From positions 1 to 38,085 of the forward strand of contig CAXMOO010000059.1 of NCBI GenBank assembly GCA_964195005.1: a stretch of DNA of 38,085 nucleotides, given 5' to 3'. The stretch comes from an uncultured Gammaproteobacteria bacterium. Lineage in GTDB: Bacteria > Actinomycetota > Acidimicrobiia > Spongiisociales > SHLN01. The notes beneath the pieces are model-generated. The model searched no databases. It was not told the DNA's origin and worked only from the letters and a program-made list of their open reading frames with translations. Below, piece by piece: positions 22,214 to 38,085 of this stretch (within the stretch, counting starts at the first letter, position 1; every line of letters starts with the position of its first letter). Position numbers and translations under genes: made by a program.

Positions 22214-24713
22214 GCTGACCCTGAAAGGCTTCCAGTCGTACGCCGACCAACAAACCTTCGATTTCCGGGATCGGCGGTTGGTAGGAATAGTCGGCCCGAT
22301 CGGCGCCGGCAAGTCGTCCTTGCTGGATGGTATCGCCTTCGCCCTATACGGTCGGACTCCCCGAGCCGGCAAGTCGACTAGAGGGCTCATCAATCAGCGC
22401 CAGGGCTCGGCCCACGTCGAGCTGTGGTTCCAGGTAGAAGGTGAGACCTGGCGAGCCGTGCGAGCCCTGCGGCGCAAGGGACAGAGCGCCCACAACCTGT
22501 ACCGGTACGCCGGTGATGAGCCGGGGGCCGAGCGACTTGAGGAATTTACCGGAGAGAAGCTGGTGACCGCCAGGGTATCCGAGTTGCTCGGCCTCGATTT
22601 CGAAGGTTTCAGTCGGTCGGTTTTTCTTGCGCAGAACCGCTTTGCCGACTTCCTGGAGGCAACGGCCAGTCAGCGCGATGTGGTTCTCAAAGGAGTATTT
22701 GCGCTCGACCGGCTCGATCGCATGGAGGAGGTTGCCAAAACTCGTCGCGATGGCCTTCGTGCCGAACTGGCGGATCTCGAGCGGTTGCGCGGTGAGGTCG
22801 AGGCAGATCGGTCTCCTCTGAAAGAGGCTCGGGCGGCTCTCAAAAAGGCCACTACGACGCTTGCTGAGATCGAGTCACATCGCGAAAACGCACGCCGGCT
22901 CGAGGTGGCGGCTGCCGAGGCGCTCGGTGATGGCGAGCGGGCTCAGTCGCGTCTCGCTGAGCTCTCCGGCCTGGCGGCGCAGCTCCCGGCCAGGGACAAG
23001 ACAGGCGTGCTACTCGATCGGGCTGCAGCCGGGAGCAAAGGCCAGGCCGAGGCCGAGGCGGCATTGGCCGACGCCACCAAAGGCCTGGAGGTCGCCCGTC
23101 GGCATCAGGCGCAAACGGTCAAGAAGACGGGTGGGCCGGCGGCTCTGGAGCGAGTTGGTGGCCGGCTGGAACAACTGGCCGCTCTCGAGAAGCGAGCCAA
23201 AGACGCAGCCGCCGGCTCGAAAACAGCTCGAGCCGGCCTGGAGCGAGCGCAGAAGGATGCGGCCAAAGCGGAAAAGGATCTCGCATCCAGCTTGGAGGCG
23301 CAGACGGTCGCGGCCGTCGCAGTGGAGTCGGCAGCTGAAGCCACCGCCACCGCAGAGGAGGCATGGCACAGGGCAACTCATGAAGCCGGCGCGCTGGCTC
23401 TTCGCGAGGGCCTAGTGGTCGGAGAGCCCTGTCCCGTCTGCGAGCAGACGGTTGTGGTGCCGCCGGGAGCCAAGAAAGCACCGAAAGCCGACCAGGTCGA
23501 CCGTGCCCTGGACCGGGCACGGAGGACGCTCGGCAAAGCGCAAGCCGTCAACACCGATGCCGCCACGGCTCACGCCACTGCGCTGGCCAGGGTGGAATCG
23601 ACCCACAAAGCCCACCTGGCGGCTGAACAGCACGATAAGGAAGCGCTTTCGGCCGAGGAGTCGCTGGCCGCCGAACGTCAAGGCATTTCCGATCAGCTCG
23701 AAAAGGCTGTCGGGAAGGAGAAGCCGTCTCAGGTCCTGGGACGATGGCGCTCCCAGTTGGACGAGGCCGATGCCCTCGTAGAGCTAAAAGTCGCCGCCGA
23801 GAACGCGACGAGGGATCACCTGGCAACAGAGCAGGCGGCACGTGCCGGGATGGGCTCAGAGTTAGTCCAGCTTGCCACCACGGTTGCCACTCTGGCCGGG
23901 CAGCTCGGCGGCGAGATCCGACCCGCGGCCGACGCTGCCGAGTTGTCCGACTCGCTCGATCAGCTCCGCAAGCTGTGGGAAGAGCGTTCGGCGGCGGCCC
24001 AGGATGAGCACAGGGCTTTTATCAAGCGAAGAGAAGAGGCTGAAACAGCAGTTGCCGGGATCCTCCAGCAGCTCGGCCTGACGCCTGGAATAACGTTGGC
24101 CGACGCGATCAAGAATGCCGGTGCCAATCAGGCGCGTCTCCAGGAGAGGGTCGAGACCCTGGAGGGTCGAGCGGAGCGGCTCGCCGAGGCGGAGAAGGGC
24201 TCGGCCGAAACGGTACAGGCGCTCAACCTCTACACGACACTTGCAGACGATCTGCTGCCCAGCCGCTTTCTCAAGTCTGTCCTCGATGAGGAGCGACGAT
24301 CGTTGGCCGCATTGGGGAGCGAGCACTTCGCTCGCATGACCAGGGGCCGCTATCGGTTCACGGAAGACGGCGCCTTCAACGTCATGGATCTCAGCGCCGC
24401 CGGGGTTGAGCGGAAGGCCGACACTCTATCGGGTGGAGAATCCTTCATTGCCTCGCTCGGATTGGCCCTGGCGCTTGCCGAGATGGTGACTCGTACCGGA
24501 GGCCGACTTGACGCTTTCTTCCTCGATGAGGGCTTCGGCTCCCTCGATCCCGAGCATCTCGAGTTGGCCATGGAGGGCATCGAGGCACTGGTCGGTGGCG
24601 ACCGGCTGGTAGTAGTCGTGAGTCACGTTCCCCAACTGCGCGAAAGGGTGGAAGACCTAATCGAGCTTGATAAGGACCCAACCACGGGGGATACCAGGGT
24701 CGTCCGGTCGTGA
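22200..24713 (+). CDS. sbcC: SbcC/Rad50 SMC-like ATPase
   Basis: ATG at 22200 ([14 protein letters not shown]), Walker [10 protein letters not shown], coiled coil with CPVC zinc hook, LSGGE signature and [10 protein letters not shown]. Confidence 0.93.
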
Positions 24714-36571: not shown

Positions 36572-37372
36572 TCAAACCGGAATGGTTTCGGGGCGGCGGG
36601 CCATGTCGGGCGTCGGCTCGCCGGTGCCACCGAATGCCGGACAAATGCCCTGAAATGAGCACCAGTCACACAGCCGCGAAGGCCGGGGCGGGAAGGCTTC
36701 CTTTTCGATTGCCGCCTTGATGGCGGTCCACAACGCCTGAATCTGCCGTTCCATGGCGTCGAGTTGCTGTTCGGTCACCGCCAGGGAATAGAGGGTTGGG
36801 CCGTTCAGGTACAGCAAGCGAAGCTCAACGGGAGCCCGGCCAAAGTGACGCCGGGTGAGCAGGGCGTAGATCTTCAAAGCAAAGAAAGCCGGCAATGCAT
36901 AGCGCTCTGGGGGAGCCTTACCCGTCTTGTAGTCGGTGACCACCAAATCGCCGGCGGCGTCTTCGTCAATCCGATCGAGAATCCCCCGCACCGTCACATC
37001 CTGGACTTCTTCGATGAGGTCGAGCTCGCAATCCACGGGGTCGATCTTGGTGGGGTCCTCGACGGTGAAGTAGTTGGCGAGTAGCTCAAGGCTTTCGATT
37101 CCCCAAACCCGCTCTTCCTCCACCGTCTCGAACAAGTGGGTGTACTCCTCGTTACGTACCTCAGCCCATGCTTGCCGAAAGAGATCGAAGAGGCGCTCGG
37201 GTGTGCGCTCGCTCGCATCACCTCCAAAAAGGCGCTGCAACGCCAGGTGGGCGGTGGTTCCTCGTGCCTGGTAGATGGTGGCCGGTTCCATCAATCGGTC
37301 GATCGAGCGGAACTTGAAGAGCTGAGGGCATTGTTTGAAGTCGCTGAGCCTGCTGGGCGAAACCCGTTTCAT
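36572..37372 (-). CDS. RecB-family / Cas4-like PD-(D/E)XK exonuclease with four-Cys Fe-S motif
   Basis: SPSRLSDFKQCP, GTTAH, RGILDRID, DYKTG and LCDWCSFQGICP. ATG at 37372. Confidence 0.88.
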   Translation of the reverse strand: MKRVSPSRLSDFKQCPQLFKFRSIDRLMEPATIYQARGTTAHLALQRLFGGDASERTPERLFDLFRQAWAEVRNEEYTHLFETVEEERVWGIESLELLANYFTVEDPTKIDPVDCELDLIEEVQDVTVRGILDRIDEDAAGDLVVTDYKTGKAPPERYALPAFFALKIYALLTRRHFGRAPVELRLLYLNGPTLYSLAVTEQQLDAMERQIQALWTAIKAAIEKEAFPPRPSRLCDWCSFQGICPAFGGTGEPTPDMARRPETIPV

Positions 37373-37379
37373 GAGCTGC

Positions 37380-37401
37380 ACTATAAGGGGGGAGAGTGAC
37401 A
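37380..37401 (-). promoter_or_regulatory. RecA-NDp/PafBC-like promoter of the RecB-family exonuclease
   Basis: Minus strand reads TGTCAC-N10-TATAGT, ending 7 nt before ATG 37372. Confidence 0.72.
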
Positions 37402-37469
37402 CGAATGTAATTCCCGACCGGCGCCGCGAAACTTACTTTTATGGCGCGAAAACAAACCATCGTTCTGGT

Positions 37470-37498
37470 TTGACCGGCCTGTAACTCTCGCGTAGCTT
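37470..37498 (+). promoter_or_regulatory. Housekeeping (sigma-A/70-type) promoter
   Basis: TTGACC-N17-TAGCTT, predicting a transcription start near 37505, immediately before the first hairpin. Confidence 0.65.
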
Positions 37499-37504
37499 CA
37501 AGTT

Positions 37505-37960
37505 GTCGCTCGGGGAACCGAGCGCCCCGAAACGGCGAAAGTCGCTTTGGCTCCACAGATCGAAAGGTTTGTAGAGAACCGCTGGAGGGTCAAACCTCCG
37601 GCTCTGCGATACCGGATCGCAGGAGTGGCCGCCTAGATTCGAATGCGGCCGAGGAAGCTCACAAGGCTTTTTTGGACGATAGGCAGCCGCAACGGGCTCG
37701 CCGCTCACAAGGCGGAGGGCGCGGGCCATGAGGGCCGGACCCGCAAGGGCGAGGAACTCCTGGCGCTCGGTGATTGAGAGGTCATCGGGTCAGCGCTGAT
37801 AGTTGGAGCGCCAAAAACGCTTTAACTTCGCTCGGGACGCGGGCTTACGGGCACAAGTCCTAGGGCGGAAGCCGGCACCGGTCCGAAAGGATGCGGCCCG
37901 GTAAGCGGAAGTCCCGAGAGGGTTGAGGTCACGGCCGAGGCTCACTCGGGACTTTCCGCG
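37505..37960 (+). ncRNA. Candidate large structured non-coding RNA (family not recognised)
   Basis: About 15 near-contiguous stem-loops with G-U pairs and GNRA tetraloops on the + strand, an upstream promoter, a long 3' closing hairpin, and no credible ORF. Confidence 0.6.
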
Positions 37961-37973
37961 CGCTATATACCTT

Positions 37974-38028
37974 TTCGATTTCTCGGCCTTGCCTGACAGT
38001 GGCGCGTATTAGGGGCCGAGAAATCGAA
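37974..38028. repeat. 15-bp perfect inverted repeat (REP-like element or terminator)
   Basis: TTCGATTTCTCGGCC (37974-37988) and GGCCGAGAAATCGAA (38014-38028) around a 25-nt loop. Confidence 0.75.
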
Positions 38029-38085
38029 GTGCTGCCGCCGGAGTTCGAGGTGGGGGATGGCCGGCGCCGCCGGCGCCAGGCCCAG

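Follow-up and report, generated by a model that had tools for sequence, protein, structure and literature searches.

A highly expressed, structured non-coding RNA and its undescribed family in one order of Acidimicrobiia

The DNA studied here is the whole contig CAXMOO010000059.1 of assembly GCA_964195005.1, 38,085 nt numbered along the + strand and referred to below as the window. Close to its end, positions 37505-37960 of the + strand encode a non-coding RNA of about 455 nt that is highly expressed and heavily structured; its gene stands alone, with its own promoter and a conserved terminal hairpin. The RNA is a member of an undescribed family found throughout one order of Acidimicrobiia, whose members live in the sea and in sediments, and this family is a new RNA class relative to Rfam 15 and the searchable literature. 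The best overall explanation is a stand-alone RNA of a new family with a protein-binding role in trans, and we put the probability of this explanation at about 0.6. An initial annotation of the window had interpreted the region as a large stand-alone structured RNA, and our analysis supports that interpretation.

Parts of the region 37300-38085 are contained in 20 public sequencing runs from 15 studies. Six of these runs are metatranscriptomes, and they contain 26-33% of the sampled words. The DNA runs among the 20 served only as a rough pointer to habitat, and gaps in cover in runs beyond the four aligned were given no weight. Contigs of four RNA runs (four metatranscriptome studies) were aligned to 36800-38085 at a likeness of at least 90%. 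Their cover is restricted to approximately 37518-37958. It is zero over 36800-37487, i.e. over the promoter and the divergent nuclease gene upstream, and practically zero from 37961. Neither flank is covered, as expected for the stand-alone gene of the initial annotation. In run X18 there is a single contig at 37518-37912 and in run X19 a single contig at 37526-37933. Run X16 has contigs at 37558-37782 and 37753-37957, and run X15 has 889 contigs with many variants and a summed word depth of up to ~9e5. Because the flanks are silent, DNA carry-over is unlikely, and libraries of as few as 39-62 million letters sufficed to assemble the RNA, which implies a high abundance. The transcript is far more abundant than the mRNA of the neighbouring nuclease, for which the cover is zero. 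A 5' untranslated region or read-through was rejected, as the gene that follows is encoded on the opposite strand and contig cover ends at about 37958.

The upstream signals, the gene and the parts of its RNA are the following.

37425-37452, + strand: double upstream box CGCGAAA-N13-CGCGAAA(A), about 17 nt before the -35 element, read from the sequence
37470-37498, + strand: promoter TTGACC-N17-TAGCTT, with TTGACC at 37470-37475, a 17-nt spacer and TAGCTT at 37493-37498
37505-37960, + strand: RNA gene of about 455 nt with approximate ends, from RNA contigs, fold and a consensus structure with compensatory changes
37505-37602, + strand: 5' domain of four hairpins, with GGAA, GAAA and GAAA loops and GCUGGAGG/CCUCCGGC, from the alignments (consensus helices 2-7)
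37603-37790, + strand: central domain (consensus helices 10-19, projected onto the window)
37603-37623, + strand: central hairpin, by consensus projection like the next four
37625-37628/37687-37690, + strand: closing pairs of a three-way junction, which encloses the conserved CACAA-loop hairpin 37655-37669
37701-37715, + strand: second CACAA hairpin
37740-37749, + strand: GCAA hairpin
37766-37789, + strand: GAGA hairpin
37791-37904, + strand: body of the 3' domain (consensus helices 20-25, projected)
37801-37827, + strand: hairpin with an A-rich loop, by consensus projection like the next two
around 37831-37860, + strand: nested hairpin
37871-37902, + strand: GCCGG…CCGGU stem with an inner GAAA hairpin
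37905-37959, + strand: family-defining 3' terminal hairpin CCCGAG-A-GGG…CUC-A-CUCGGG with the tail UUUCCGCG, from an alignment and covariance model R1

The consensus structure was obtained with RNAalifold from nine homologous sequences of two genera (alignment A1). It consists of 154 pairs, arranged in 26 mostly local helices and the three-way junction. The consensus cells are paired in 96.4% of cases, compared with 92.1 ± 0.3% for shuffled and 33-49% for slid controls. Compensatory changes, on both sides of a pair, are found in 43 pairs against 14.7 ± 2.8 for shuffled controls (0 of 500 reach 43) and 2-13 for slid controls, and 27 of the 43 are in helices 10-19 of the central domain. Covarying homologues, on which the initial annotation had made its RNA depend, do exist. 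We regard the covariation as good support for the predicted structure, short of final because the nine sequences are few and akin to one another. Projected onto the window, the consensus gives 128 standard pairs over 459 nt, with about 60% of the bases paired. In the terminal helix 17 of 20 pairs are invariant, and the helix contains a 1x1 A·M mismatch and a G·U pair. The terminal hairpin marks the probable end of the transcript.

A script found all 14 hairpins that the initial annotation had listed, each at its coordinates, and as a conserved fold most of them stand: ten share pairs with the nine-homologue consensus by exact pair count. For the hairpin at 37581-37602 and the closing stem at 37905-37959 this count is 0 through a register offset; both are covered by the consensus, the first by three inner pairs only. 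GGC-GGAA-GCC (37864-37873) and GGCCGC/GCGGCC (37627-37650) are absent from the consensus, which has the three-way junction with six compensatory pairs instead of the latter. The seven GNRA loops counted earlier are all present, six of them in consensus hairpins.

The RNA is assigned to the + strand because of the direction of the promoter, the asymmetry of the fold and the G-U pairs of the consensus. The minimum free energy is -235.6 kcal/mol for the + strand, with a z-score of -6.11 and 0 of 100 dinucleotide shuffles as good, against -192.2 kcal/mol, a z-score of -2.69 and 1 of 100 shuffles as good for the minus strand. G-U is the most frequent form of 16 consensus pairs and would be a C-A mismatch on the opposite strand. 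The selection at the RNA level on the + strand that the initial annotation had proposed agrees with these numbers. A small protein was rejected as an explanation: no open reading frame (ORF) of at least 25 amino acids is found inside the RNA at a position conserved among the homologues, and in G006 there is none of this kind on the + strand. A minus-strand ORF of 96 amino acids (37439-37729) leaves the aligned region, and the conservation script could not judge it. It is disfavoured because of variable-length insertions in the homologues and substitutions of the RNA type.

Full-length homologues were found by BLASTN and nhmmer only in the same genus (G001, 98%) and in a sister genus (g2), with matches of 70-78% in 8 of 8 genomes. 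One weak BLASTN match, in G028 (E 0.006), was counted only in the tally of 28 out of 61. The homologues of the sister genus have several extra hairpin modules after the 5' domain, in alignment columns ~107-286 that are absent in the window. These modules are of the type CCGGAAGGG-CGAAAG-CCCGACCGG, their number is variable, and the RNA of the window has none of them.

Across the order only the last ~55 nt are recognisable by sequence, and the bodies have diverged. The syntenic intergenic regions contain one to three RNA genes in tandem, with three features in common. The first is a pair of CGCGAAA boxes, 13 nt apart and located ~17-20 nt upstream of the promoter. The second is the promoter itself, of the form TTGAC-N17/18-TAnnnT. 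The third is the terminal hairpin CCCGAG-A-GGG…(GCUUCGGC)…CUC-A/C/U-CUCGGG, followed by UUUCUCGCG, a U-rich tail and CGCG. By script, 117 gene candidates with boxes, promoter and hairpin (101 unique) were collected from 163 loci, in length classes of ~145-155, 208-300, 340-460 and 495-800 nt; among the longest, some probably comprise two genes. The bodies measure 145 to ~650 nt and consist of rapidly evolving hairpins capped by extra-stable UUCG or GNRA loops; the RNA of the window is an enlarged member of the family. Genomes with the family carry 1-5 copies of the gene, which often form a tandem group next to a PD-(D/E)XK nuclease gene.

The promoter TTGACC-N17-TAGCTT was described in the initial annotation as it stands in the sequence, and its arrangement is conserved: TTGAC-N17/18-TAnnnT recurs ahead of homologues and paralogues alike. 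The RNA contigs start shortly 3' of it. A simple sigma-70 consensus scan did not list the site and listed no canonical terminator; the promoter was missed because TAGCTT matches only 3 of the 6 positions of TATAAT and fits the TAnnnT pattern only.

A covariance model of the terminal hairpin, R1, was built from 106 aligned family hairpins (alignment A2). The hairpin of the window, 37905-37961, obtains 65.6 bits (E 3.7e-15) with R1, a match that is partly by construction since the sequence was in the training alignment. The family is close to universal in the order, and outside it matches are weak or rare. A strict hairpin pattern, searched in 401 genomes of the phylum, was found in 7 of 7 genomes of the same order, the window genome included, in 1 of 24 from other orders of the class and in 1 of 370 from the rest of the phylum; the last two matches are not hairpin-like. 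With R1, 35 of 36 genomes of the order matched in a sample of the class, with E from 1e-6 to 1e-19 and 1-5 mostly clustered copies, and 10 of 114 genomes of other orders matched weakly (E 4e-7 to 1e-3). In a sample of the phylum the corresponding numbers were 4 of 4 for the order, 0 of 6 for other orders of the class and 2 of 140 for the rest. A scan of 185,579 species genomes gave at least 120 stretches. Among the matches listed, most are from metagenome-assembled genomes of Acidimicrobiia, Acidimicrobiaceae or Actinomycetota, with a scatter of likely chance matches, and one contig has five hairpins within 1.6 kb.

The window genome has a second paralogue of ~230 nt, on contig C136 at about 22900-23231 of the minus strand (L179, about 2400-2732). 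The double box recurs there ahead of a promoter TTGACG-N17-TAGCTT, and the terminal hairpin, in a variant form, obtains 48.9 bits with R1. It is located between a peptidase M3 gene and a small ORF, a helix-turn-helix regulator and a transporter of the major facilitator superfamily.

Within the family bodies, an internal motif CC(C/A)GAGAGGG…CUCACU(C/G)GG resembles the 3' helix. The bodies are enriched in C(UUCG)G, with 227 observed against 24 expected, and in C(GCAA)G, with 100 observed against 9.5 expected. A k-mer search of the bodies for a repeated sponge motif returned only these tetraloop caps and no long conserved single-stranded seed. RNAalifold gave a poor consensus for the mixed short class, because two subtypes were pooled.

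Tandem arrays adjoin the nuclease gene at two loci from the genome contigs: L070 (4049-5688) has five family genes and L073 (3773-4784) has three. Short (~155 nt) and long (~386-585 nt) members alternate in these arrays. At C77:46600-47800 (L182) in G457, a genome that belongs to a different order of the class, there is a hairpin-chain RNA whose terminal hairpin is related. It lies directly upstream of a PD-(D/E)XK homologue in the same direction, and no CGCGAAA boxes were seen there. From this arrangement, the link between RNA and nuclease may predate the order. A conserved intergenic RNA-like sequence of ~270 nt was also observed in two genomes of a different family of the phylum (f27), at G179:C253:50200-51400 (L180) and G206:C9:29300-30500 (L181). 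It stands behind a TTGACC promoter, is without a Rfam match and ends in a related hairpin, GAGAGCCCCGAG(A/G)G…CUCGGGGCUCUUCAG. It could be distantly related to the RNA family, or it may have a similar terminator.

The double CGCGAAA box is rare, with 5 occurrences in the 2.2-Mb genome and 15 in five near-complete relatives. It precedes family RNA genes in the window genome and its relatives, and we presume it to be a shared transcription-factor site of the family promoters. Other occurrences stand ahead of dnaA and nrdJ (class II ribonucleotide reductase) in G025 (loci L174 and L176) and ahead of mreB in the window genome (C193:7172-7194, L189). Two more in the window genome, at C41:7366-7392 and C191:2339-2365, have no identified target. 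The distribution of the boxes suggests a small regulon that would tie the RNA to replication and cell-cycle genes (dnaA, nrdJ, mreB). The tail after the terminal hairpin (UUUUCGCG / UUUCUCGCG) approximates the reverse complement of the upstream CGCGAAAA box in alignment A2, which means that the family genes are flanked by inverted box-like sequences.

The initial annotation had found no sign of a known RNA family, and the comparison with Rfam 15 agrees. None of its 4227 models, which include RNase P, tmRNA, 6S, raiA, OLE, ROOL, GOLLD, HEARO, IMES and the group I and II introns, matches anywhere in the window at the gathering threshold. At E ≤ 10 there are only five chance-level matches, of 7-18 bits against cut-offs of 34-84. 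Nine other family loci and four distant loci gave nothing significant in Rfam either. RNase P RNA (RF00010) was rejected since the copy of this genome is at C20:18000-18367 (296 bits) and none is in the RNA region; tRNA and tmRNA were rejected with 0 genes found by ARAGORN in 37300-38085. No description of the RNA was found in full-text searches of the literature, whose coverage stops short of the supplements of the Ms1 papers (homologue lists, structures), and these could bear on candidates in Acidimicrobiia.

What the RNA does is suggested by the pattern of its conservation. The 3' helix is conserved in sequence and not in pairing alone, which suggests that, besides ending the transcript, it is recognised, probably by a protein. 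The fast-diverging hairpins with stable caps, the variable number of modules and the lack of a seed fit a scaffold or sponge better than a base-pairing small RNA (sRNA) or a fixed three-dimensional machine. We therefore favour, tentatively and at slightly under even odds for this part taken separately, an RNA that acts in trans as a protein-binding scaffold or sponge. Recognition would take place at the irregular 3' helix and at the internal motif that resembles it, and the fast-evolving hairpin chain would supply stability, valency or bulk. A factor binding the CGCGAAA boxes would set the expression and would also control dnaA, nrdJ and mreB. RNA polymerase would be the most concrete candidate partner. 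A more specific version is possible, if doubtful. Here, the RNA would be a hairpin-chain ribonucleoprotein, universal in the order, that binds a global machine (RNA polymerase, a ribonuclease or another hub) via its 3' helix, with the CGCGAAA regulator controlling it together with dnaA, nrdJ and mreB and the body growing and shrinking by module duplication.

Sponges of the CsrB/RsmZ type are chains of hairpins whose number varies between species, with multiple and sometimes tandem paralogues and high expression. As these RNAs are generally known, the present family resembles them in its modular hairpin chain, its paralogues and its high expression. It differs in that no repeated GGA-type motif was found and that the loops are closed UUCG or GNRA caps.

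Several points weigh against the scaffold or sponge. The protein partner is a hypothetical one, and the 3' hairpin may chiefly serve for intrinsic termination and for stability. The bodies yielded no repeated single-stranded motif of the CsrA-GGA type. The A2 hairpins were chosen by a regular expression, so their invariance is partly by construction. The nine sequences used for the covariation come from two genera and are related, two of them being 95-98% identical, and the shuffle control ignores relatedness. The contigs reveal neither the strand nor the exact ends of the transcript, and expression is poorly measured by contig depth. In g3, a genus of the same taxonomic family, BLASTN matched 0 of 4 genomes, and g3 was not searched with the hairpin model.

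A functional analogue of 6S RNA or Ms1, i.e. an abundant RNA that stores or silences RNA polymerase (holoenzyme or core) in slow-growing cells, is the alternative that survives best, and we consider it unlikely. The article text describes Ms1 as abundant, 230-300 nt in size, of different lengths in different genera, and bound to the RNA polymerase core (PMC9130861, PMC4191392). It was found by HAD hydrolase synteny in 824 Actinomycetota, and the orders listed in that text are without Acidimicrobiia (PMC9130861, PMC4191392). The synteny concerns a gene pair of a HAD-IB hydrolase and an 'oxidoreductase' (PMC9130861), Ms1 is near the replication origin in 84% of cases (PMC4191392), and Rfam contains Ms1 according to the authors of the Ms1 work (PMC9130861, PMC4191392).

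As far as the article text describes Ms1, the two RNAs have much in common: the same phylum, an abundant stand-alone sRNA, a promoter of the sigma-A type, hairpins at both ends and a length that varies between genera. The very high abundance in sediment and marine metatranscriptomes, the stand-alone gene with a strong promoter and the near-universal presence in the order (35/36) would all suit such an analogue, as would the absence of Acidimicrobiia from the orders listed for Ms1. However, the fold is a chain of local hairpins with a three-way junction, and the consensus has no long hairpin, closing stem or central bubble. There is no covariance-model match at any Rfam threshold used, although Rfam contains Ms1. 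The flanks are a nuclease and an MscS-like channel, and the C136 paralogue is likewise without the HAD synteny, which is thus absent from both loci of the window genome. In 4 of 4 genomes, dnaA and the RNA are 33-38% of the genome length apart (sizes rounded; two of the genomes are in two contigs), so the locus is not near the origin. In five large Actinomycetia genomes R1 gave only weak and inconsistent matches. Finally, lengths of 145-650 nt and up to five tandem copies are unlike 6S or Ms1; the multiple copies, wider size range, conserved 3' hairpin sequence and double CGCGAAA boxes all set the family apart from Ms1, the last two being unmentioned in the article text on Ms1.

With 6S RNA the family shares the character of an abundant regulatory RNA of the housekeeping type. 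It differs in having no architecture of closing stem, central bubble and terminal loop and no RF00013 match. RF00013 was not detected in the window genome and five near-complete relatives, with a model that finds 6S in only 5 of 14 control genomes. The role of 6S may accordingly be vacant here, for which this silence is weak evidence.

The tandem paralogues with a common terminator hairpin resemble a family of sibling sRNAs, which would regulate mRNAs in trans by base-pairing through unpaired stretches (purine-rich GGAG/GAGG linkers, CACAA loop). Unpaired stretches and the CACAA loop are conserved, and the short class has a purine-rich GGAAGGAGAG linker. We nevertheless hold this explanation for quite improbable: ~60% of the RNA of the window is paired and its loops are mostly closed UUCG or GNRA caps, the extreme abundance and the 455 nt are unusual for pairing sRNAs, and the bodies diverge beyond recognition between families of the order with the 3' hairpin alone kept, which is the opposite of a conserved seed.

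There is little to recommend a self-assembling or catalytic large ornate RNA of the ROOL, GOLLD, OLE or raiA kind, with a defined three-dimensional architecture held by tertiary or intermolecular GNRA contacts. The seven GNRA loops of the window, the complex covarying secondary structure with its three-way junction and the high abundance are in its favour. A precedent is the raiA motif RNA, in the article text an abundant orphan structured RNA of Actinomycetota including Acidimicrobiia (PMC10861870). Like the raiA motif, OLE, ROOL, GOLLD and IMES, the present RNA is large, ornate, covarying, abundant and partly known from environmental sequence. However, none of these matches it in Rfam 15, and its body is far less conserved, with only the promoter and the 3' hairpin constant. 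The poor conservation between families of the order and the gain and loss of modules argue against a single fixed fold; no conserved junction or pseudoknot nucleotides were identified, and no 11-nt tetraloop receptor was seen by eye.

A cis element of the nuclease locus (promoter competition or a leader) or a functionless repeat or mobile hairpin array is least probable, for although a PD-(D/E)XK gene adjoins 43 of 78 loci, the G457 RNA is directly upstream of one in the same direction and the boxes are only ~25-50 nt from the nuclease start codon, 35 of the 78 loci have no nuclease gene within 8 kb, the C136 paralogue stands between a peptidase M3 gene and unrelated genes, the transcript is discrete with zero cover of the neighbouring mRNA, the RNA is single-copy at the sequence level in the genome by BLASTN, which rejects a mobile repeat, and the compensatory changes show selection on RNA.

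The surroundings of the RNA gene contain two further features.

36572-37402, - strand: gene of a PD-(D/E)XK (Cas4/AddB-like) nuclease (Pfam PDDEXK_1 PF12705, E 2e-38)
37968-38085, + strand: start of a ~172-nt repeated element with the inverted repeat TTCGATTTCTCGGCC…GGCCGAGAAATCGAA, by BLASTN

The nuclease gene is the divergent upstream neighbour and the syntenic anchor of the RNA locus. The Cas4-like exonuclease that the initial annotation had placed here is a PD-(D/E)XK nuclease by Pfam, and the cas4 and AddB models of NCBIfam match it only below threshold. In a scan of genome contigs a PD-(D/E)XK homologue was found in the 43 family-like loci mentioned above, usually adjacent and divergent, and likewise at most RNA loci of relatives. 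Contig C215 of the same genome overlaps the last 141 bases of the window and extends the locus downstream. The next downstream gene, of an MscS-like channel, is there on the opposite strand, beyond copies of the ~172-nt repeat.

This element occurs in two tandem copies of 87% identity (BLASTN), continuing on C215 at positions 1-370, with a partial third copy in the same genome at C69:6268-6339. Tandem Repeats Finder returned nothing for the downstream repeat, and the two copies are known from BLASTN only. The element carries a GC-rich GGCCGGCGCCGCCGGCGCC stretch. Related copies are present in genomes of the sister genus, in one of them with the RNA promoter on one side and the nuclease gene on the other. 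In the four RNA runs the element is almost silent (depth ~0), and it is separate from the abundant RNA.

Acidimicrobiia are abundant in marine sediment, seawater and soil, and they are barely studied at the molecular level. In at least one metatranscriptome from sediment, few of their non-ribosomal transcripts are as strongly represented as the RNA described here. Abundant structured RNAs that are kept throughout a lineage often run central processes, as do 6S, Ms1, tmRNA, RNase P and CsrB. The RNA offers a handle on the control of growth state in a clade rich in uncultured members, and a marker transcript for the activity of these bacteria in metatranscriptomes. The CGCGAAA-box regulon (dnaA, nrdJ, mreB) hints at a further regulator. 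The novelty holds at the level of the RNA class, and the mechanism may prove analogous to a known one. If the binding of a global machine is true, the RNA would take the functional place of 6S, Ms1 or CsrB with a molecule of different design, in a lineage for which none of the three is known. The family is also a natural example of evolution by gain and loss of hairpin modules around one kept recognition helix.

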